A stretch of 64,000 bases of DNA from Candidatus Poribacteria bacterium (lineage in GTDB: Bacteria; Poribacteria; WGA-4E; WGA-3G). The notes under the pieces are model-generated. The model saw nothing but the letters and a program-made list of their open reading frames with translations. It searched no databases and was not told the DNA's origin. Where the stretch lies: positions 544,001 through 608,000 of the forward strand of contig CAXXUA010000005.1 of NCBI GenBank assembly GCA_963663765.2, given 5' to 3'. Below are positions 47,031-61,693 of the stretch, in pieces. Position numbers and translations under genes: made by a program. Each line of letters begins with the position of its first letter. Positions within the stretch are counted from its first letter, which is position 1.

Positions 47031-49346
47031 TCAATCTATTATAATCTGGTTTACATCCCACAGAAGCACTGTACCATCTTTACAACCTGTCGCGATTAGT
47101 GTGCCATCTGACGAAAAAGCAAAACCGTAGACCCAATCAGAATGGTTTAATATCGCTTTGATTGTTCCACTATTAACATCCCACAAACGTACTGAGTTAT
47201 TGTACCCTCCAGCAATAGTCGCGCTATCTGGAGAATAAATATATGGGTATTTCCACCTAGTATGACCAGTATGTGCGTATTCTCGTCCTCGGGTTTTTCC
47301 TGTACTTAAGGAGACTATTTGGCTGCCATTGCGAGCATTCCAAACATTTAGAATTTCTGCATTACCATTCAAACAAGCTACAGTTGTTGCATCTGGTGAA
47401 TATGTAAAGTGATTAATAAAATAGTCTTGCTCTCCTTCAAGAGTGACCTTGCGTTCTCTTGTGAGAACGTCCCATAAATCCACTGTATTATCCTCATTTT
47501 TAAGCGCAACCATGATGTTTATTGGTGTGTAAACAAAGATAGAAATATCGTCTAAATCATGAAATACTCTTATGGGCAGTCCAGTTGTTGCATGCCATAG
47601 ACGCACCGTTTTATCATACGACGATCCACTAACGATAATGGTACCATCTGCAGAATATGCTATTGATCTAACCTGTTCTTTATGCCCTATTAGTGAATTC
47701 TTGAGTTTTCCTGTAGATGTATCCCATGACCGTAACGTTTTATCGGCACAGGCAGCAGTAATAGTAGTACCATCTGGAGAAAATACTACTGAACTAACCC
47801 AACAATTTGGTTTTATTATAACTTTGCGATCACCGGATGCAGTATCCCACAAAAATAACGAATAGTCATAGCCCCAACTGGCAAGTGTTGTACCATCGGG
47901 AGAATATAATAATGAATGAATCCGCTTTGTATGTCCTGTAAATGTAATTTTAAGGTCACCGTTAGCTGCATCCCATAAGATTACTTTCTTGTCTGATGTA
48001 CCAGTTGCTATAGTCTTATTATCCGGTGAATATGCAAGGCAATAAATAGCATCAATGTGTTCAACTATATGTCTAATCAGATTTCCAGTATTGGCATCCC
48101 ATAAGCGAACAGAATTGTCCTTAGTCCAACTGGTAAGTGTATTACTTTCTGATGAATACAAAAAAGAAACTATATCATCAGCATGTTTGAATGAAGCAAT
48201 CTGTCGTGCTGTTGACGTGTCCCAGAGATAGATTGTTCTGTCACTACAGTGACTAACGATTATTGTACCCTCCTTAGAATACATAAAGGACAAAATTTGA
48301 CTAGAATGATTCAGTGTACTTTTAAGTTCTCTGGAGGAAGAATCCCATAGACGTAAAGTCTTATCCCTACTTGCACTTGCGATAGTTTTACCATTTAGTG
48401 AATACAAGATTTCAGTAATCCAATCTGTATATTCTATTGAAGTTGTCTTGAGTTCACCCGATGCTGTATCCCAAAATTTCACAGTTTGATCAGTACTACC
48501 TGTAGCAATAATAGTACTATCAGGTGAATACGTTACAGAAGTTATCTGGTCCTTTTGTTCCAATGTCTTTTCAAGGTTTCCAGTTCCAGTGTCCCATAAA
48601 TACACCTTCTTATCAATGCTCAAAGTAGCAAGTGCGGAACTATCAGGTGAATATATTAAAGAAAAAATGTTGTATTTATGAGCAAGTGTAGCTATGAGTT
48701 TTCCACTGTTTACATCAATTAATTGTGCAGTTGCTGAGCGACTACTCTTACCTATAAGTGTGGTATTATCTGGTGAAAAAACTATAAAGTCAACCACGCG
48801 TTTTTTTGAAATAATTCTTGCTCTAAGTTTACCTGTCGTTGTATCCCATAAACGCAAAACACCAAATTTGGTACGACTTTCTGCTTGTATATAGTATCCT
48901 CCAGTAGCAACTGTTTTTCCATCGGATGAGAATACTACAATAATGTCTTGATACTTTCCATCAAAATCCATGTTTAGTGTGGTATATAGTTTTCCTGTGG
49001 TAGCATTCCACATTCTGACCTTACCATCACTACAAACACATGCAATATAATTTCCATCAGGTGTAAATTCTATTGATTTGACATCGTGTTTATCATCTGG
49101 AAAAAGGTTAACCTCTTTACCGTTCTTTGTATCGTAAATCCAAATACCAATTGAACTAGTTACTGCTAAGTGCAAACCATCTGGTGAATATTTAATATCA
49201 GAGATTGAACCTTTACCCATACGCATTTTAGCTCCTTTGGGTAAACTGAAATACTTATAATCCGATGAAAATACTGATGGTAAAACAACAAGCATTAGGA
49301 ATATCGTCAGACAGAGTTTAAAATATAGTATTGCTTTCATGGACAA
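47031..49346 (-). CDS. Secreted WD40-repeat protein
   Basis: Signal peptide, LPKGAKMRMGKG, many YSPD..T.A....D..V.LWD repeats. Confidence 0.92.
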   Translation of the reverse strand: MSMKAILYFKLCLTIFLMLVVLPSVFSSDYKYFSLPKGAKMRMGKGSISDIKYSPDGLHLAVTSSIGIWIYDTKNGKEVNLFPDDKHDVKSIEFTPDGNYIACVCSDGKVRMWNATTGKLYTTLNMDFDGKYQDIIVVFSSDGKTVATGGYYIQAESRTKFGVLRLWDTTTGKLRARIISKKRVVDFIVFSPDNTTLIGKSSRSATAQLIDVNSGKLIATLAHKYNIFSLIYSPDSSALATLSIDKKVYLWDTGTGNLEKTLEQKDQITSVTYSPDSTIIATGSTDQTVKFWDTASGELKTTSIEYTDWITEILYSLNGKTIASASRDKTLRLWDSSSRELKSTLNHSSQILSFMYSKEGTIIVSHCSDRTIYLWDTSTARQIASFKHADDIVSFLYSSESNTLTSWTKDNSVRLWDANTGNLIRHIVEHIDAIYCLAYSPDNKTIATGTSDKKVILWDAANGDLKITFTGHTKRIHSLLYSPDGTTLASWGYDYSLFLWDTASGDRKVIIKPNCWVSSVVFSPDGTTITAACADKTLRSWDTSTGKLKNSLIGHKEQVRSIAYSADGTIIVSGSSYDKTVRLWHATTGLPIRVFHDLDDISIFVYTPINIMVALKNEDNTVDLWDVLTRERKVTLEGEQDYFINHFTYSPDATTVACLNGNAEILNVWNARNGSQIVSLSTGKTRGREYAHTGHTRWKYPYIYSPDSATIAGGYNNSVRLWDVNSGTIKAILNHSDWVYGFAFSSDGTLIATGCKDGTVLLWDVNQIIID

Positions 49347-49782: not shown

Positions 49783-50580
49783 ATGGTAAAACTTACGCAA
49801 GATGACATAGAGTTTTTCAAGAATGAAGGTTATTTAGTCAAACGCGACGTCCTAAACCCAGAACTAATGGAACGCGCACGAACAAGATTATGGGATGGAG
49901 CACCAGAGGGAAGACTTCGAGAGGACCCAGACACATGGGTTGGTCCCTTCAAAAAGGAAGAAGAGAACGAAGAAAACTCCAATCGGAGAAAAGGATTTAG
50001 ATGGAACTTCCGTGAACCCGGTGGGGAAGATTGGATGATAAAACTACTCGCTACCGATCCAAATGTCTGGCACATGGCAGAACAGTTCTTAGGTGAAGAA
50101 AACCTTGTGGAACCTAATCGCGTACGTGGAATCTATTGCACACTCCCTTATGGAAATGTCACAAAGAAATCAAGCGGATGTCATGTAGATGCACATCCAT
50201 TCCATCTTGGAGTTGTCGGTTATATTGATGACGTCCCCAAAGAAGGTGGCGGTTTTACAGTGTGGCCCGGAAGCCATAAGATCTTCTATTACGACTATAA
50301 ATCGCAGTATAAGAACGAACCGACACCACAATATGACATTGATCGTGAACGGCTTAGTAGAGAACTGGGTGTTGAATGTTATGGTAATGCAGGAGATATA
50401 GTCTTCTGGCATCATCGCATAGGACATGCAGCGGGACATAACTACTCCAGGCAGATACGGCAAGCCGTCATATACAGCTATAAAAAAACTGAATTGTCGG
50501 AAACACAAGAAGATCCACCCAACAAAGACATGTGGAGAGATTGGCCTGGTATAAAAGCGTTAGAGAAGACAGATACATAG
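49783..50580 (+). CDS. Phytanoyl-CoA dioxygenase (PhyH) family Fe/2OG enzyme, copy 1
   Basis: F...GYLV, HVD, GG..VWPGSH and GD.VFWH..IGH motifs. Confidence 0.9.
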   Translation: MVKLTQDDIEFFKNEGYLVKRDVLNPELMERARTRLWDGAPEGRLREDPDTWVGPFKKEEENEENSNRRKGFRWNFREPGGEDWMIKLLATDPNVWHMAEQFLGEENLVEPNRVRGIYCTLPYGNVTKKSSGCHVDAHPFHLGVVGYIDDVPKEGGGFTVWPGSHKIFYYDYKSQYKNEPTPQYDIDRERLSRELGVECYGNAGDIVFWHHRIGHAAGHNYSRQIRQAVIYSYKKTELSETQEDPPNKDMWRDWPGIKALEKTDT

Positions 50581-51056: not shown

Positions 51057-51854
51057 ATGGTAGAACTTACGCAAGATGACATTGAGTTTTTCAAGAATGA
51101 AGGTTATTTAGTCAAACGCAACGTCCTAAACTCAGAACTAATGGAACGCGCACGAACAAGATTATGGGATGGAGCACCAGAGGGAAGACTTCGAGAGGAC
51201 CCAGACACATGGGTTGGTCCCTTCAAAAAGGAAGAAGAGAACGAAGAAAACTCCAATCGGAGAAAAGGATTCAGATGGAACTTCCGTGAACCCGGTGGGG
51301 AAGATTGGATGATAAAACTACTCGCTACCGATCCAAATGTCTGGCACATGGCAGAACAGTTCTTAGGTGAAGGAAGCCTTGTGGAACCAAAACGCATCCG
51401 TGGAATCTATTGCACACTCCCCTATGGAGATGTCATAAAGAAATCAAGCGGATGTCATGTAGATGCACATCCATTCCATCTTGGAGTTGTCGGTTATATT
51501 GATGACGTCCCAAAAGAAGGTGGTGGTTTTACAGTGTGGCCCGGAAGCCATAAAATCTTCTATTACGATTACAAATCGCAGTATAAGAACGAACCGACAC
51601 CACAATATGACATTGATCGTGAACGACTCAGTAGAGAACCAGGAGTTGAATGCAATGGCAATGCAGGAGATATAGTCTTCTGGCATCATCGCATCGGACA
51701 TACAGCAGGACATAACTACTCCAGACAGATACGACAAGCTGTCCTGTACGACTTTAGAAAAACCGAATTGTCAGAAACACAAGAAGAACCACCTAACGAA
51801 GATATGTGGAGAGATTGGCCGGGAATAAAAGCTTTGGAGAAGTCAGATACTTAG
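51057..51854 (+). CDS. PhyH family dioxygenase, copy 2
   Basis: Over 90% identical by eye to 49783-50580. Confidence 0.9.
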   Translation: MVELTQDDIEFFKNEGYLVKRNVLNSELMERARTRLWDGAPEGRLREDPDTWVGPFKKEEENEENSNRRKGFRWNFREPGGEDWMIKLLATDPNVWHMAEQFLGEGSLVEPKRIRGIYCTLPYGDVIKKSSGCHVDAHPFHLGVVGYIDDVPKEGGGFTVWPGSHKIFYYDYKSQYKNEPTPQYDIDRERLSREPGVECNGNAGDIVFWHHRIGHTAGHNYSRQIRQAVLYDFRKTELSETQEEPPNEDMWRDWPGIKALEKSDT

Positions 51855-51962: not shown

Positions 51963-53657
51963 CTAATTCTGTCCCAAAACCTTCAGAAACTCAGGATCTT
52001 CCTTTACTTCTGAAAATTCAGGTGTTTCAAGGAAGGCAGGATAGTATCTTGCTTCATTCCAATAATTTCCGATGTAGTTTGAAGCAAGTTTCAAATTGTG
52101 CAGAGTCTTCTCTCGATCTTTCTCAGTTACCCAGATTGCGACAGCGAGCATGAAATACGCCCAATCGTTCTTATTTTGCAGATCAAGAGAGGTTTTTAAG
52201 AAACGTTTTGCTTCCTCATACTTCTTTGACCAGACGAGGCAACACCCGAAGTCATGAGCAGCCCAGATAAGATCACCCGTATTGACAGGATAACCAGCTC
52301 CATGTTTTTCGACTTCCAATTCAATAAACTTACTGAGGTCCGAAAACACTGAATCAAAAAGTACCCAGTCTTCCTGTTTACTGTAAATCAAGACTTTATT
52401 CGTTCTAATAGCCAACCAGAATCGGAAATAATGTTTCCAATCCTGATCTTTGTTAGCATGTTCTAACTTATCTAAGCCAAGAAGTGCATCCTCAAAAAGA
52501 TCGTTGTTTCGTAATACCTCTGCTCCAATTTGCAGAAAATCACAGCGGGAGTAGTCACTCACATCTTGGTTGACTAAACGTTCGGATGCCTCATCATGAA
52601 GTTGAATCCATTCTTCAATTCGACCTTCATCTTTCCAACATCCGGCAGCGTTCAGATTAGACATCACCTCTAATACATGCTTATCTGACATGTGCTGGCA
52701 TGTCCAACGGTAAAGCCGTGTATGCTCTTCAATAGTTTCTCGGTTTCTTTCCAAACAAGCAAGACTATTCACTAAGTTCTGATGTGCCCAGAAACGTTCG
52801 TCATCACTTGGTGCTTTGTCTTGATAATTTCGGAGTAGTGCAATCCGACTTTCCATTCCGATTTTTCCATAATGCGCGTAAATATCATCCACAGCAAAAT
52901 GCACCAACTCTTTTGTGATTTTTCCCTTGAGTGCCTCTTCTACCTCAACATAAGCTTCCTTAAGGATTTCCTCTCCTGAGAGAATATCATTCTGCGTAAT
53001 GGGATAAGATTCTACCTTTTCCATATACGCATTAAATTTGCTGCGAATGTCTTCCAATTTAACAGACATAATATCTCCTTTGTAACCACTCCAAATCTCA
53101 CGAATTGTATATTCCTCCTTCAGTAGACGTTTACGGGCGCGATGGAGCCGACTCTTGACCGTATTCGTTGATACACCCAAAAAATCGCTAATATCTGCAC
53201 ACGTCATGTCTTCAAGATAGTGTAACCTGATAGTGGTACGTTCACCCACTGGTAACTTTTGAAGAAGGTGTTTAACAACTTCGCGTTGTTGTTCAAACGC
53301 AATTTCCTTTTGCTGTTTTTCGTGGTACTTTGTATAAGCCAGTTCCTCTAATTCCCCAGCAGGCATGGTATCTAAGGACGTCATTGGAATCCGCTTTTTT
53401 TCATACCAAGCGTAACAATAACGAGCTGCTATCACATAAAGCCACCCAACAAAACTATTCTGATTCTTCAATGTGTGAAGTTTCTGGTGGACTCTCAAGA
53501 ATATATCTTGCGTGACTTCTTCAGCGATGTGGTAGTCACCGATTTTCCGCCATACGAAAGTGTGAACGGGCTTTTGGTATTTTTGCACAAGTACGTTGAA
53601 AGCAGATTGGTCACCTGCCAATGTTCGTTGAATCAATTGTGCGTCATCGTTTTTCAT
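51963..53657 (-). CDS. ECF sigma factor with long soluble helical/TPR-like C-terminal domain
   Basis: AEEVTQDIF and TVKSRLHRAR motifs; ~370-aa helical extension. Confidence 0.9.
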   Translation of the reverse strand: MKNDDAQLIQRTLAGDQSAFNVLVQKYQKPVHTFVWRKIGDYHIAEEVTQDIFLRVHQKLHTLKNQNSFVGWLYVIAARYCYAWYEKKRIPMTSLDTMPAGELEELAYTKYHEKQQKEIAFEQQREVVKHLLQKLPVGERTTIRLHYLEDMTCADISDFLGVSTNTVKSRLHRARKRLLKEEYTIREIWSGYKGDIMSVKLEDIRSKFNAYMEKVESYPITQNDILSGEEILKEAYVEVEEALKGKITKELVHFAVDDIYAHYGKIGMESRIALLRNYQDKAPSDDERFWAHQNLVNSLACLERNRETIEEHTRLYRWTCQHMSDKHVLEVMSNLNAAGCWKDEGRIEEWIQLHDEASERLVNQDVSDYSRCDFLQIGAEVLRNNDLFEDALLGLDKLEHANKDQDWKHYFRFWLAIRTNKVLIYSKQEDWVLFDSVFSDLSKFIELEVEKHGAGYPVNTGDLIWAAHDFGCCLVWSKKYEEAKRFLKTSLDLQNKNDWAYFMLAVAIWVTEKDREKTLHNLKLASNYIGNYWNEARYYPAFLETPEFSEVKEDPEFLKVLGQN

Positions 53658-54003: not shown

Positions 54004-55706
54004 CTATTTTCCAAAAATATGCAGAAACTCTGGATCGTCCTTTATATCTGAAAACTCGTGTGTGCTACGAAAAGATGAATAGTAACTATCCATATAATTG
54101 TAGGCTTCTACTATATAGTAGTCCTGAGCAATTTTTAAATGATGCAAAGTTTTCTCGCGATCCTTCTTTGATGCCCAGATACTCACAGCGAGCATGAAGT
54201 GTCCATAATGATTGTTATTCCCCAAATCACTCGCAACCTGCAGGAATCGTGTTGCATCACTATACTTACCTAACCACACAAGGACACACCCTATATCATG
54301 AGTAAACCATATTAGATCACTAAGATCTACAGGTTGACCTGCTTCCATTTTTTCAACTCTACTTCCATATAGTAAGTAACTTCCGTAATAATTTCAATGT
54401 AACGTTCCCACTCCTTCTTTCTGGCATACAGTAGAAGTCGATTTGTTCTCACAGCCAACCAAAATCGAAAAAAATGTTTCCAATCTTGTTTAGTGTTCAC
54501 GCGTTCCAATTTCTCTATCTCTTGAAGTGCCTCATCAGTCCTACCGTTTGCACGTAAGACTTCTGCTCCCATTTGCAAAAAATCGCAGCGACTGTAGTAA
54601 CTCACTTCAGATTTATCTAAACGTTCAGATGCTTCAGTATATAGTTGGATCCAGTCATCAATTCTATTTTCAGCTGCCCAACATCCAGCACTATTTAGAT
54701 TAGAAATAATTTGCAAGACATCCTTATCAGGTAGGTTTTGGTGGCATGCCCACTTGTAAAGTCGAGTGTGTTCCTCAACAGCTTCTCGGTTCTTCCCGAG
54801 AATAGAGAGACTGATGACTAAATTCTCATGTGCCCAAAAACGTTCTGTATCATCTGGTGCATCATCCAAATATTTACGGAGTAAAGTCACACGTTTTTCT
54901 ATACCGAGTCTACCCATGTGTGGATACAAATTATCAACCACAAGATGTACTAATTCAGGTGTAATTTCGCCCTTAAGCGTATCTTCAATCTCTTTGGATG
55001 CATCCTTAAGAATACTCTCTCTTGATGTTGGATCAGATTTTACTTGTTCCATGAATGAATCGAACTTGCTGCGAAGTTGCTCTAATTGACTCATTATATT
55101 CTCCTTTAAATCATGGGGTATTTGTATTTGACCAAAGAATTCTTGATCTAACAGTTCCTGATCAGTTTGTAAACGTTTTCGTGCACGTTGGAGACGGCTG
55201 GTAATTGTATTTACCGACACTCCCATGAATTCACCAATCTCTTTTGTTGACATTTCGTCGAGATAGTAGTGTGTTACCACCGCGCGTTCTTCCTCTGGTA
55301 GTTTATCCAGTAGCTTTTGCACAAGCTCCTGGCAATACTCGTTTCTATCAGTTACCCACTGTTCCGCAATGTGATGAGTATAAGAGGCTTCCCCAATTTC
55401 TTCTGGATGAGTGGTCTCCAGAGATTGCATCACAGGCTTTTGCTTTCGTATCCAATCAATGCAAAGGTGTTTTGCGATGACATGAATCCATCCTGCAAAT
55501 TGGTCATGATCTTTGAGTGTAGACAATTTTTTATATGCCTTAAGGAATGTGTCTTGCATGATCTCTTCCGCATAGTGAAAGTCGTGTAACTTTCTCCATG
55601 CAAGCGCGTGAATGCTCTTTTGGTACCTTTCTACCAAGACACCAAACGCAGCCTCGTCCCCAGATAAGATTTTGCGTATCAATTTAACATCGTCATCTCT
55701 TTCCAC
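54004..55706 (-). pseudogene. Paralogous ECF sigma/TPR-like gene split by a 1-nt frameshift
   Basis: ORFs 54327-55706 and 54004-54348 together align with 51963-53657; break falls in an A6 run at 54348-54353. Confidence 0.8.
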
Positions 55707-58040: not shown

Positions 58041-58355
58041 TCTATTCTTCTCCTTTACGTAAAATTATCAATACGGTTCACACTCTCTAATATTTAAAGA
58101 CGAAGTTTTGATCAAAAAACGTGCAATATAGTTAAAAAGTGAAAAAAAGTTATTTATGGTAGAATTTTTGTGCGGAGAAATGATAAACCCGATTTCATAA
58201 TCTCAGGGTGAGAATAATTGAGATGTGTCTCAACGTATTTAATGGTGAAGCGGATGGTTCTCAATGGTATAAGTTTGTGCCTGATATAAGTGATCATGTA
58301 ATGCGCAAACTATTCCATAAATTATCTGTGATTTAATCACTTAGTTTTTTCTGTT

Positions 58356-59516
58356 CAGGACTTACGCACCTAACGGTAGGCGCGCTTTGAAAGCGCGCTG
58401 GAAACCAAAAAAATGCTGAAAATTACACCATTTTCGTCATAATTCTTCATCAAATCATGAAAACTGCGTAAGTCCTGCTGTTTATAGTTATTTCATAGAT
58501 GTTTCGTAGATTTTACAGGACTTACGCACCCAACGGTAGGCGTGCTTTGTAAGCGCGCCGGAAACCTAAAATATGCTGAAAATTACATCGTTTTCGGCTT
58601 AAGTCTTGATTGGATCATGAAAACTGCGTAAGTCCTGTTTTATAATTGACTTGACATTTTGAATAGTAGGAGGTAACTCCGATTTCCGACTATCAAAAGG
58701 TTTGGTCATGATTCTGAGATCGCTCCTACAGAAGAACTGACAATATATTCTCTATAATTCACGATAATTCTGTAATTTATAGTAGAATCCGAAAATATAT
58801 TTACACTCCGAGATAGGATCTCACATAACACGTTTGTAGGTGTTGGGTAACCCAACCCCATAAGCGTCAATTTAAGGATTTTCACCTCTTGTGGGAGGGG
58901 TTTTCAACTTAAGGATTTTCACCTCTTGTAGGCTTACAATTACCCATAAGTTTTTGGGTATAGTCCGTTAAGTCTTTTGTGGGTGCCTATTGCTTAAAAA
59001 CACCTGAAAACTGACCAATATTTTAGATGTAGCATACCGTTATAGTCCTTTTAGACAAGTTTCACAAGATTTTTAGTTCTTATGACCAGTTTTCTGTAAT
59101 CTATCGGGGTTAGAAACCCCTCCTACAGCAGCATGTCGTGCCTTTGTACCTCCAATTTGACTTATGGGTAAAAGTAAGCTTGTGGGAGGGGTTTTCAACT
59201 TAAGGATTTTCACCTCTTGTGGGAGGGTTTTTCAACCCCGATGTTTTAGCGCATTTCCGCTCAAATCGAGGTTTAAAAACCCTCCCACAAGAGAAATGAA
59301 AACAATATTTTCTTAAATTGACGCCTATGGGGCGGGGAGACCCCGCCCCTACGTCCAGTAACCAAAACTTTACACACCCTAGATTTTATAATTGACTTGA
59401 CATTTTGAGTTGTAGGAGGGAACTCCGATTTCCGACTGTCAAAGGGTTTGATAGTCGGGAATCGGAGTTCCCTCCTACAACTCAGGATGTAGATTTAATT
59501 GTATAATCCACCATAA
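58356..59516. mobile_element. ~1.2-kb stack and nest of MITEs and REPs
   Basis: Family A at 58356-58477 (TSD CTGTT) and 58516-58637 (TSD TTTTA); CATAAGCGTC element ~58857-59331 with nested element ~58930-59181; repeated block 58638-58706 / ~59383-59450. Confidence 0.85.
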
Positions 59517-59525
59517 ACGCGAAAA

Positions 59526-60746
59526 CTAAGTGTCTCTGAACATAGTTTTGGAATGAAATTCAGAGATGCTTTCAACACCATGGAGCAACATTTCATCGCT
59601 TAGACCGAACACCTCAGCTACTTTCAATGGACGATCTACCGTGTCAAGAAGCCTTTGGTTCGGCATAACAAGAACAGAATCAGCATTTTCGCGAAGTTCC
59701 TGCAGTCCTTGTTCTGCGCGTTCGGCGCGCCGTTCCCCTTCAAACATAAACGGACAAGTGACAATGCCAACAGTTAGAGCCCCTTGTTCTCGCGCAAGGG
59801 ATGCAATCAGAGGTGCAGCACCTGTTCCTGTCCCACCACCCATGCCAGCGGTAATGAAGACCATGTCCGCGTCCGCAACAATGTTATGGAGCGTTTCTCT
59901 GTCTTCCTCAGCGGCTTTTTTACCTATCTCTGGATTTGCGCCACAACCAAGTCCTTGCGTGGTGTTCGCACCGATCTGAACCGGTGTTGCGTCAGCGCAT
60001 GTATCCAATGCTTGTTGATCTGTGTTTACAACGTAGAATTCAATATCTGTCAAACCGGCACCTATCATTCGTTTGACAGCGTTCCCTCCCGCTCCACCGA
60101 CGCCAATAACTTTAATTTTCGTTCGGGTGCGTTTGGATTTATCTTGTTTAGATGACATAACTTTACCTCTTTCAGGTTCAACGTTGAACTCCTTACGTAG
60201 GAGTTCACGTGCCTGTCTTAATTTGGTTTTGATTGTTCCTATCGCTAATTCGAGTTCAGCGTGGATCTCTTTGACACTCCACAATTCCAGATAGTATAAC
60301 TCCGCGACGCGGCGCACTTTTTCTGGAAGATGATGCACTGCTTCATTTACTGCCTCACGAAGTTCTGTTTCTTGGAAACGTGTAACTGCGTTCTGATCAA
60401 TTTGATCGGTTAAGTAAGCATCACTGCACAGAATTTCACCCTTTGAATGGTGGCGAGAAACGTAGTACCTCTTGCAGGCGTTGTAAGCAATGCGGTGCAG
60501 CCATCCACCAAAACTCTCAAGGTTTTGCAGTCCGCTGATGTTTTCCCAAACAGAACGCCAGACATCCATGAGAATTTCTTCAGCGTCGCGGCGTTGTCTC
60601 GAATTTGTGATAATCACTTTCCAGATGCGTGGACTATAACGCAACATCAGTTCTGTCAATGCTGATTCATCTCCGATTTGTGTAAACTGGATGAGTTCTT
60701 CATCTGTCAGATCTGTGTACGTTGATAGATTGTCTCGCATAAACAT
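59526..60746 (-). CDS. ECF sigma factor fused to an FtsZ N-terminal GTPase domain
   Basis: Sigma regions 2 and 4 (DAEEILMDVW, GTIKTKLRQAR), then KIKVIGVGGAGGNAV, NTD, GLGCGANPEIG, GMGGGTGTG, PF.FEG..R. Confidence 0.92.
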   Translation of the reverse strand: MFMRDNLSTYTDLTDEELIQFTQIGDESALTELMLRYSPRIWKVIITNSRQRRDAEEILMDVWRSVWENISGLQNLESFGGWLHRIAYNACKRYYVSRHHSKGEILCSDAYLTDQIDQNAVTRFQETELREAVNEAVHHLPEKVRRVAELYYLELWSVKEIHAELELAIGTIKTKLRQARELLRKEFNVEPERGKVMSSKQDKSKRTRTKIKVIGVGGAGGNAVKRMIGAGLTDIEFYVVNTDQQALDTCADATPVQIGANTTQGLGCGANPEIGKKAAEEDRETLHNIVADADMVFITAGMGGGTGTGAAPLIASLAREQGALTVGIVTCPFMFEGERRAERAEQGLQELRENADSVLVMPNQRLLDTVDRPLKVAEVFGLSDEMLLHGVESISEFHSKTMFRDT

Positions 60747-60853
60747 TTTCCAATTAGATTTAACCTATAGAGTTATCTTTTTCGGTAGGGGGTTTAAAAA
60801 AAGCAAAATTTTTAAGAATTTAGAATCTTCCATTCTGAATTTCAGTTATTTCA

Positions 60854-61636
60854 TTAATTAGTTTTTTCCGATTTTAGATATTTTAATGTGTTTTCGACAA
60901 TGTAGTCCCCTGAATCTTCAAGAAACTGCTGAACCAGAAATGCATGCCCAGCACCGATAATCAGCAAAATTCGATCATTGGCAGATTCGGTGATGCGTGT
61001 CAGATTCACAAAGATTTTAAGATTTCTCTCGTACCAGCCCAATAACCAATCCAATCCGACATATTGGTCTGCTACACCGATTTGGGCGAGTGTGAACTGT
61101 GGAAGCATGTTAATCTCATGTATAACACGAATGGTTTCTTTCTGATTGAGAAAATGGAGCATATCAATCACACTCCCAGTTTTTTGGAGCTCTATGAGGG
61201 TGGCGAGAGGCTTCTGTACTATAGATTGAAGTCTGGTATCTGCTTTTTCCAGCAATCGGCATTGGTTATGCGTCTTTGCAAATGCATCAACATCCACTAT
61301 TTTTTCCTTGTCTGATCTCCCAAAGTAGTCAACACAGTAAATCTTTGGATGTTGCATCTCTTTTGCCAGTGGAAAACTGACTTGATCGCCTTCACTCCGT
61401 CCCGGTTTATATACTTCATTTAGATAATCTTGATACTGAGCGTTGACTTCAGCATCAAGACTGGTATCTGCCTCAACTGCTATCTTATCTGGGTTAAATT
61501 GCGCAAGTTGTTTGACAAGTTGCTGAAGTTCACGCTGCATTTTAGGAGCCAACACATCATCTGATTCAAAGTTGACAGCATCCGCTCCTGGGTTGTCCAT
61601 GTGATAAGTGCCAAGAATCATGATAGTTGGTTTCAT
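60854..61636 (-). CDS. DUF5694-like (TraB/erythromycin-esterase-like) protein
   Basis: ILGTYHM, WYERNLKIF.N and IIGAGH motifs; AAAGGAG RBS. Confidence 0.7.
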   Translation of the reverse strand: MKPTIMILGTYHMDNPGADAVNFESDDVLAPKMQRELQQLVKQLAQFNPDKIAVEADTSLDAEVNAQYQDYLNEVYKPGRSEGDQVSFPLAKEMQHPKIYCVDYFGRSDKEKIVDVDAFAKTHNQCRLLEKADTRLQSIVQKPLATLIELQKTGSVIDMLHFLNQKETIRVIHEINMLPQFTLAQIGVADQYVGLDWLLGWYERNLKIFVNLTRITESANDRILLIIGAGHAFLVQQFLEDSGDYIVENTLKYLKSEKTN

Positions 61637-61693
61637 TGATGTGTTTTCTCCTTTACGCACTGTAGGTTTGCATAAGAAATGGAATTATTGACA

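Follow-up and report, generated by a model that had tools for sequence, protein, structure and literature searches.

Few bacterial proteins have been studied as thoroughly as sigma factors and FtsZ, and one gene in the DNA analysed here raises the question of what a polypeptide might do that joins a sigma factor to half of an FtsZ. The window, by which we mean the whole stretch of 64,000 nt, comes from a Candidatus Poribacteria bacterium (assembly GCA_963663765.2, contig CAXXUA010000005.1, positions 544,001 to 608,000 of the forward strand), and the gene, which we call sigma-FtsZN, lies on its minus strand at 59526..60746. The open reading frame (ORF) has 406 codons counted from the first ATG; the likelier start is the second ATG at 60740, giving 404 aa, as in public gene calls and in agreement with ribosome-binding-site spacing. 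A sequence-only reading of the window had described a complete extracytoplasmic function (ECF) sigma factor fused to an FtsZ N-domain that ends after helix H7, outside any dcw (division and cell wall) cluster, and every element of this description was borne out by domain searches and by the position of the genome's other FtsZ genes. The comparative data show the gene to be intact and to have been conserved over a long time in a single family of Poribacteria, which are sponge symbionts. As the best explanation of its function we tentatively propose a self-activating sigma factor with a GTP-loaded half-FtsZ that binds FtsZ filaments at their growing end and caps them.

The sigma half consists of sigma2 and sigma4 only, without region 1.1 or 3, as in the ECF (group 4) sigma factors. 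All three matching models score above their cut-offs: Sigma70_r2 (PF04542) at residues 34–97 with 29.8 bits (Pfam cut-off 24), Sigma70_r4_2 (PF08281) at residues 131–183 with 32.6 bits (Pfam cut-off 25.7) and the NCBIfam sigma70-ECF model TIGR02937 at residues 29–186 with 70.7 bits (cut-off 42.9). The second half matches the Tubulin/FtsZ GTPase family (PF00091, Pfam) at residues 210–370, covering profile positions 1–189 of 190 with an E-value of 8e-48, and carries the tubulin signature GGGTGTG at residues 303–309 (window 59820–59840). The NCBIfam ftsZ model TIGR00065 aligns residues 200–397 to model positions 8–205 of 353 only, and its score of 269.2 bits lies under the cut-off of 295.2. The protein ends in ..LLHGVESISE-FHSKTMFRDT*, with the stop codon (59526–59528) 10 residues past H7; at the same point the native FtsZ of the genome runs on with IIRETGEINVDFAD, which is the T7 loop. 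FtsZ_C (PF12327) had no match at the locus, either in Pfam or in a family search of the genome. Judged by its sequence, the protein is an FtsZ-derived half rather than an FtsZ: it has no T7 synergy loop, no GTPase-activating C-domain and no C-terminal linker or FtsA-binding tail peptide, and its gene is not in a dcw/ftsA location. The parts of the gene and its immediate surroundings are as follows.

59526..60746, minus strand: sigma-FtsZN gene (ORF, Pfam, public gene calls)
60456..60647, minus strand: sigma-70 region 2, residues 34–97 (PF04542)
60198..60356, minus strand: sigma-70 region 4.2, residues 131–183 (PF08281, TIGR02937)
60126..60182, minus strand: flexible linker rich in Lys, Arg and Glu, residues 189–207 (AlphaFold2 predicted local distance difference test, pLDDT, <50; paralog sequences)
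59637..60119, minus strand: FtsZ nucleotide-binding (GTPase) domain, residues 210–370 (PF00091, Foldseek, pLDDT)
59559..59621, minus strand: core helix H7, residues 376–396, with invariant F380, S383 and D384 (family alignment, AlphaFold2)
59529..59558, minus strand: short tail FHSKTMFRDT, in place of the T7 loop (family alignment)
60766..60802, minus strand: promoter-like bipartite motif (sequence, motif scans)
60854..61660, minus strand: DUF5694 gene, the same-strand upstream neighbour, context and not part of the gene (Pfam, relatives' loci)
58100..59520, no strand assigned: nest of repeats resembling miniature inverted-repeat transposable elements (MITEs), past the stop and adjacent to the gene (repeat families)

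An AlphaFold2 model built with 76 family sequences has two folded halves and a disordered linker (mean pLDDT 73.4; predicted template-modelling score, pTM, 0.48). In the GTPase domain pLDDT is 77–97 in 10-residue blocks, and H7 continues into the tail. Foldseek matched the model to solved FtsZ structures over 181–194 alignment columns at 48–54% identity, with root-mean-square deviations of 1.4–3.1 Å in 49 of the 50 matches listed and 10.5 Å in the remaining one.

Four genes of the assembly have a Tubulin domain: the native ftsZ, the window gene and two near-identical genes for 594-aa fusions of a sigma factor to a full FtsZ. The native FtsZ (447 aa, tail ..WDIPAFLRVQ..) adjoins ftsA on another contig, C13, and the window gene sits between the DUF5694 gene and the repeat nest, outside the dcw cluster. 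The 594-aa fusions (L003 and L004; 880–2664), at C6:276016.. and C13:379590.., have a T7-like loop, SVDLED, that keeps both aspartates, and a C-terminal tail of their own, unrelated. FtsZ_C matches across the genome were confined to the native gene and these two paralogs; the same whole-genome family search found no orphan FtsZ C-domain, downstream of the window gene or elsewhere. Three further paralogs on contig C11 (45885–48608, 52029–54749 and 76917–79481) carry WD40 beta-propellers of ~650–700 aa after a ..EP.RG.VMS.. junction; the linker of the window protein contains the corresponding ..EP.RG.VMSSK..

We surveyed 112 genomes of the same family with residues 101–406, a query that spans the junction. 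The short form, that is, the fusion ending in a half-FtsZ, was present in 76 of the 112 (77 rows, with open frames of 386–464 aa and matches that reach the end of the half-FtsZ), comprising 15 of the 40 genomes of the window's genus and 61 of the 65 of a sister genus. The fusion is therefore not peculiar to one assembly. An in-frame TGA interrupts one of the 77 copies (G099), and another runs off the end of its contig; in one related genome the copy is broken by a TGA (locus L035). Across 176 genomes of the phylum, a 151-aa junction query matched 100, every one in this family, and none of the 64 genomes from ten other Poribacteria families. Scanning one genome per prokaryote species with a pattern left 80 loci, 76 from Candidatus or uncultured Poribacteria and 4 from 'uncultured bacterium'. 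At least 120 protein clusters (90% identity) have the sigma-FtsZN architecture and, where named, are called 'hypothetical protein' or 'sigma-70 family RNA polymerase sigma factor [Candidatus Poribacteria bacterium]'. In a set of 1.84 billion representative proteins, the junction query found ~10 clusters that span the junction, mostly this family or its full-length paralogs. Two further sigma-FtsZ fusions, P0144 (456 aa) and P0214 (498 aa), have different and more distant sigma domains; each is a singleton on a contig of 2–5.5 kb, one of them high in G+C with a full but degenerate FtsZ, and they are too thin a basis for fusions outside Poribacteria.

Within the family, both halves of the protein are conserved. 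Across the 76 sequences, D54, A55, E56, E57, D61, W63, W67, W82, N89 and C91 of region 2 are invariant, and the GTP loops are invariant or nearly so: T1 (GxGxAGxNA), N241, the NTD motif, T3, T4 (AGMGGGxG), PFxFEG, NQ and the SD of H7. Eighty columns of the nucleotide-binding domain (NBD) are conserved at ≥90% in both the short form and the native FtsZ of the family, and the residue is the same in 72 of them. Sigma-fused copies stop 7–12 residues past H7 (7–16 with sigma-less copies included), E396 and F397 show almost no variation, and the tail motif EF-H-S/A is common to the two genera. Ratios of non-synonymous to synonymous substitution (dN/dS; Nei-Gojobori, NG86) for 17 orthologue pairs were 0.09–0.39 in the half-FtsZ, which is thus not decaying neutrally, and 0.13–0.43 in the sigma half; the 10-codon tail is too short for this measure. 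Genes for the half-FtsZ alone, without a sigma domain (213–224 aa), occur in three genomes, and their dN/dS of 0.26–0.31 is that of purifying selection, which argues that the half-FtsZ has a role of its own. As a separate observation, synonymous divergence from the four closest orthologues (L039, L009, L010 and L011) is 0.15–0.28 in the sigma half and 0.47–0.63 in the FtsZ half, which suggests recombination or gene conversion of the sigma half among them.

Where the half-FtsZ came from is indicated by a quick maximum-likelihood tree of 74 FtsZ N-domains with three outgroup families. Short and sigma-less forms make up one clade (Shimodaira-Hasegawa-like approximate likelihood ratio test, SH-aLRT, 97) and full-length fusions another (100); the two are sisters (87), and both are nested in the native FtsZ of the family (97 against the outgroup families). 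The short-form clade internally mirrors the two genera. Its stem branch is 0.12, compared with 0.41 for the full-length paralogs, and its identity to native FtsZ is 66–70%. These relationships show that the NBD goes back to a duplicate of the lineage's own ftsZ and that the truncation is older than the split of the two genera. Because the clades nest in this way and mirror the genera, fusion and truncation are, on the same evidence, old and vertically inherited. The FtsZ half had earlier been noted as GC-rich and on that account as a possible capture. The composition is as noted (G+C 0.50, compared with 0.44 in the sigma half and 0.41 in the genome), but we reject foreign capture on the evidence of the tree and of G+C at codon positions 1+2, which is 0.552 in the FtsZ half and 0.544 in native ftsZ (third-position G+C of the FtsZ half, 0.396, near the 0.41 of the whole genome); the higher value reflects a Gly/Ala-rich protein rather than foreign DNA. 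A tree of the sigma domains resolved the full-length and WD40 clades and left short-form monophyly and the root unresolved, so we make no claim on the order in which domains were gained or lost.

Upstream of the window gene lies a bipartite motif with the general form TTTAAACC-N18-CTCWWTA. It consists of a T-run (60802–60796), AAACC (60795–60791), an 18-nt spacer and CTCTATA (60772–60766), and ends 19 nt upstream of the first ATG. All 35 short-form genes examined have a T-run + AAACC + N18 + CTCWWWA upstream, ending 18–26 nt before the start codon. In the 6.35-Mb genome the strict pattern TTAAACC-N17-19-CTC[AT][AT]TA has 6 matches, with 0 in a reversed-sequence control, and each lies 19–33 nt before one of six genes of the same sigma subfamily: the window gene, the two 594-aa sigma-FtsZ genes and the three sigma-WD40 genes on C11. 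Spacers vary among these paralogs while the two boxes are fixed. Relaxed patterns gave 18, 13 and 16 matches in the genome against 21, 5 and 13 in the control, and no further targets could be named from them. The motif also precedes full-length fusions in other genomes and is not found before sigma-less copies. In four other genomes the strict pattern occurs mostly before family genes, the exceptions being a WD40-only gene, another ECF fusion and a MacB/FtsX-like permease, and three matches with N19 spacing look like chance; a fifth genome had no strict match. The WD40-only gene (L089, in G024) encodes 600 aa, and the other ECF fusion (L091, in G094) is a 909-aa protein that opens with a different ECF-like domain. 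ECF sigma factors typically have a bipartite cognate promoter that as a rule also stands ahead of the sigma gene itself. The overall pattern is that expected of a self-activating ECF sigma factor, to the extent that upstream sequences can indicate this.

The mechanism we propose has the sigma domain driving the bipartite motif, whereby the sigma subfamily would activate itself. The NBD would bind GTP; alone, it could not hydrolyse GTP and would offer no second polymer face. It would join native FtsZ filaments, or those of the full-length sigma-FtsZ paralogs, at the end where they grow; the filament would supply the T7 loop, and elongation would halt for as long as the NBD kept its GTP. Once docked, the protein would also have its sigma domain tethered or sequestered, so that expression of the fusion family and the dynamics of the Z-ring would become readouts of one another. 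The available text of PMC8936486 describes FtsZ filaments as growing at the T7-exposing (bottom) end, where the incoming subunit binds with its nucleotide face; an NBD that has the nucleotide face only should therefore add there and cap. GTP binding and one-ended docking or capping had also been suggested by the sequence-only reading. The first fits the conserved GTP loops, and for the second we modelled a complex of native FtsZ residues 1–322 with the NBD and two GTP, alongside three controls. The complex scored 0.34 and the best control 0.00. In a benchmark, 58 of 80 solved complexes attained that mark and so did 2 of 110 mismatched pairs, and the band of passing scores up to 0.60 held 7 of the 80 solved complexes plus both passing mismatches. 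Runs agreed in ≥83% of contacts, with partner pLDDT ≥79. The pass may reflect likeness to FtsZ–FtsZ interfaces that are already solved.

Several observations count against docking and capping. The predicted complex, at 0.34, supports it weakly, and the AlphaFold2 model of the whole protein (pTM 0.48) has no confident contact between the sigma half and the half-FtsZ. The GTPase signature departs from the consensus in places, with GGGTGAG in the sister genus and GGGIGTG in one copy, changes that might mean weakened nucleotide handling. The short form was not found in 25 of the 40 genomes of the window's own genus, nor in either of two other genera (0 of 3 and 0 of 2 genomes). MinC, MinD and MinE are all present as a normal operon, leaving no gap in division control that would call for a new inhibitor, and we rejected a missing Min system as the reason for one. 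Given MinCDE and the many relatives that lack it, the short form is dispensable or accessory.

The main alternative, which we regard as possible but rather unlikely, is that the half-FtsZ is an on-board GTP sensor that makes no contact with filaments. It would fold back on sigma2/sigma4 and regulate in cis, like the SnoaL-like extension of ECF41 and the TPR extension of ECF42, with GTP or GDP occupancy switching the sigma factor on or off. The invariant GTP loops suit such a sensor, as do the paralogs with other extensions (WD40 repeats). According to the available text of PMC7826278, C-terminal extensions are the second commonest form of ECF regulation and usually go without an anti-sigma gene; here the extension directly follows sigma4, and no anti-sigma domain was found in the four neighbour genes scanned (DUF5694, DUF4252/CBM9-like, DUF4252 and S9 peptidase). 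However, purifying selection on the sigma-less half-FtsZ is unexpected for a purely cis-acting module, the agreement with native FtsZ at 72 of 80 shared conserved columns is seemingly more than GTP binding needs, and the model, with its disordered linker, does not pack the two halves together with confidence.

Less probable still is that the partner of the half-FtsZ is not the division FtsZ but the subfamily's own full-length sigma-FtsZ or sigma-FtsZ-DnaE proteins, whose assemblies it would cap or pair with, giving mixed sigma complexes in a private module. Short and full-length fusions are sister clades in the FtsZ tree, have one promoter-like motif in common and co-occur in most genomes of the sister genus, many of which give two junction-spanning matches, and the full-length forms keep a T7-like loop with both aspartates. 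The short-form NBD is nevertheless the closer of the two to native FtsZ (stem 0.12 vs 0.41; identity 66–70%), and at least 12 sister-genus genomes have the short form alone at the threshold used. The sigma-FtsZ-DnaE proteins are single open frames of 1412–1453 aa in related genomes, joining the same sigma subfamily and a full FtsZ to a part like DNA polymerase III alpha (L028:857-5164 in G006, L029:797-5104 in G022, L030:748-5109 in G024 and L034:2189-6427 in G010). That part, in a Pfam run on three examples from one genus (g1) only, has the PHP, polymerase, finger and HhH domains and ends in HhH without an OB or C-terminal part. Three genera have forms of this length, and a separate DnaE (open frame of 1183–1202 aa) was present in 5 of 5 genomes checked.

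That the window gene is a non-functional, decaying remnant, left when the MITE nest or a nonsense mutation truncated a full-length sigma-FtsZ gene, is very improbable and is refuted by the comparative data. MITE-like repeats do start a few bases past the stop codon, and TGA codons interrupt the copies at L035 and in G099. However, the same stop position and tail recur in 76 genomes of two genera, dN/dS in the FtsZ half is 0.09–0.39, and the loci L039, L009 and L010 have no room for a nest. In these three orthologous loci, from three close species, a CBM9-like gene begins ~340–490 nt past the stop, where the 1.4-kb nest would not fit; hence the nest is a later local insertion and not the cause of the truncation. 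A stop made by the MITE nest, which the earlier reading had raised as a way for its proposal to fail, is ruled out by these nest-free loci together with the stop and EF-H-S/A tail common to the two genera. The nest includes a palindromic MITE at 59382–59508, with 62-nt arms that are 84% complementary, inside which assemblies break (at 59456). Contig depth (summed; X1 and X3, described below) is ~20,000–63,000 in this MITE and ~3,100–63,000 over the whole nest (58100–59520), compared with 85–172 in the gene.

Contigs from public runs of two studies, which may include the source sample, cross the junction, as the earlier reading had asked of sequence data, and cover it and the stop with zero differences (X1, 1598 nt over 59456–60900; X3, 1183 nt over 59456–60638). 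An assembly or frame artefact that joined a sigma gene to a neighbouring ftsZ fragment can be dismissed, as no point in its favour was found, X1 and X3 cross the junction without a difference, a 484-nt contig from a third study (X6, 59760–60243, 14 differences) covers it in another strain, and dozens of independently assembled genomes have the same frame.

Extended ECF sigma factors and FtsZ-derived inhibitors are each known separately; we found no report of the two combined. ECF41 (SnoaL-like), ECF42 (TPR), ECF57 (WD40-like) and the WD40-linked ECFs of Planctomycetes likewise have a sigma2–sigma4 core, a C-terminal domain and no recognisable adjacent anti-sigma gene; the extension of the window protein differs in being half of a cytoskeletal GTPase. 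Extended ECFs, including the WD40-like repeats of ECF57 and of Planctomycetes, are treated in the available texts of PMC7826278, PMC8999054 and PMC8567305. The terms 'FtsZ' and 'tubulin' are absent from the main texts, as available, of the ECF reclassification paper PMC7826278 and the review of non-canonical ECFs PMC8999054. Our literature search found no published description of a natural sigma-FtsZ fusion, although the supplements of PMC7826278 (Text S2, Table S2) could list such a group.

On the FtsZ side, bottom-face interface mutants and the capper MciZ likewise occupy the growing, T7-exposing end and cannot be built upon, as we infer for the half-FtsZ. The former are point mutants of a complete FtsZ and the latter is a peptide of 40 aa whose target is the bottom face of free monomers; the window protein is a natural, conserved FtsZ half that lacks the entire bottom face and comes attached to a sigma factor. 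In Bacillus sporulation, the control of sigma-F by SpoIIE and FtsZ sets a precedent for making an alternative sigma factor's activity depend on the Z-ring; there the link is made by a separate phosphatase with an anti-sigma cascade, and the sigma factor itself has no FtsZ domain. The FtsZ-like part of the chloroplast protein ARC3 has lost the GTP signature. The window protein, by contrast, keeps all GTP loops, and ARC3 is eukaryotic, plastid-targeted and without a sigma domain. ARC3, which has an FtsZ-like part, a middle domain and MORN repeats, is likewise an FtsZ-derived inhibitor (10.1101/2024.01.08.574726 and PMC12232670, in their available texts). The nearest relatives of the window protein are its own paralogs, sigma-full FtsZ (~594–616 aa) and sigma-FtsZ-DnaE (~1350–1500 aa), with 53–60% identity over the whole 406-aa query. 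They share its sigma subfamily, linker, promoter-like motif and FtsZ origin, but keep the T7 loop and the FtsZ C-domain and evolve faster (stem 0.41 vs 0.12), and the larger ones add the PHP, polymerase, finger and HhH domains of DNA polymerase III alpha.

Certain neighbours recur around these genes. DUF5694 genes, single or in arrays of two or three, lie directly upstream of short-form or sigma-less half-FtsZ genes (for example L036:89-1752 in G021, L037:3004-4999 in G010 and window 60854–61660), including the sigma-less genes in two of the three genomes that have them, and CBM9-like, DUF4252 and S9-peptidase genes recur downstream. The region of the window is also rich in extended sigma factors: two more ECF-type sigma genes with long C-terminal extensions lie at 51963–53657 and 54327–55706 (both minus strand), encoding 564 and 459 aa, and their extensions lack any Pfam domain. 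Also in the window are a gene for a 771-aa WD40 protein (47031–49346, minus strand) and tandem genes for 265-aa PhyH-family dioxygenases (49783–50580 and 51057–51854, both plus strand).

For the biology of these bacteria, the sigma-FtsZN family is a ready-made, natural 'one-faced' FtsZ that is conserved and under selection, and its design may link gene control to cell division. All parts of the system are small and soluble. Should the half-FtsZ cap filaments, evolution would have provided a test of the kinetic-polarity model of FtsZ treadmilling, and the protein would be a division regulator of a new kind; should it sense GTP on behalf of the sigma factor, ECF signalling would gain a new type of input. 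A wider and doubtful reading takes positive feedback on its own small family to be the main task of the sigma factor, because the only clear promoters of the motif type in the genome are the family's own. The fused domains would then be the working parts, with the short form a switch-like, GTP-timed brake on FtsZ filament growth that, together with the sigma-FtsZ and sigma-FtsZ-DnaE paralogs, would physically link RNA polymerase, the Z-ring and a DNA polymerase in these slow-growing symbionts of sponges. If true, this would be a single-polypeptide route between transcription, replication and division without a described counterpart. The common, self-restricted motif and the sister fusions to full FtsZ, to FtsZ and DNA polymerase III alpha, and to WD40 repeats suggest that uncultured sponge symbionts have a regulatory module that is still unexplored.

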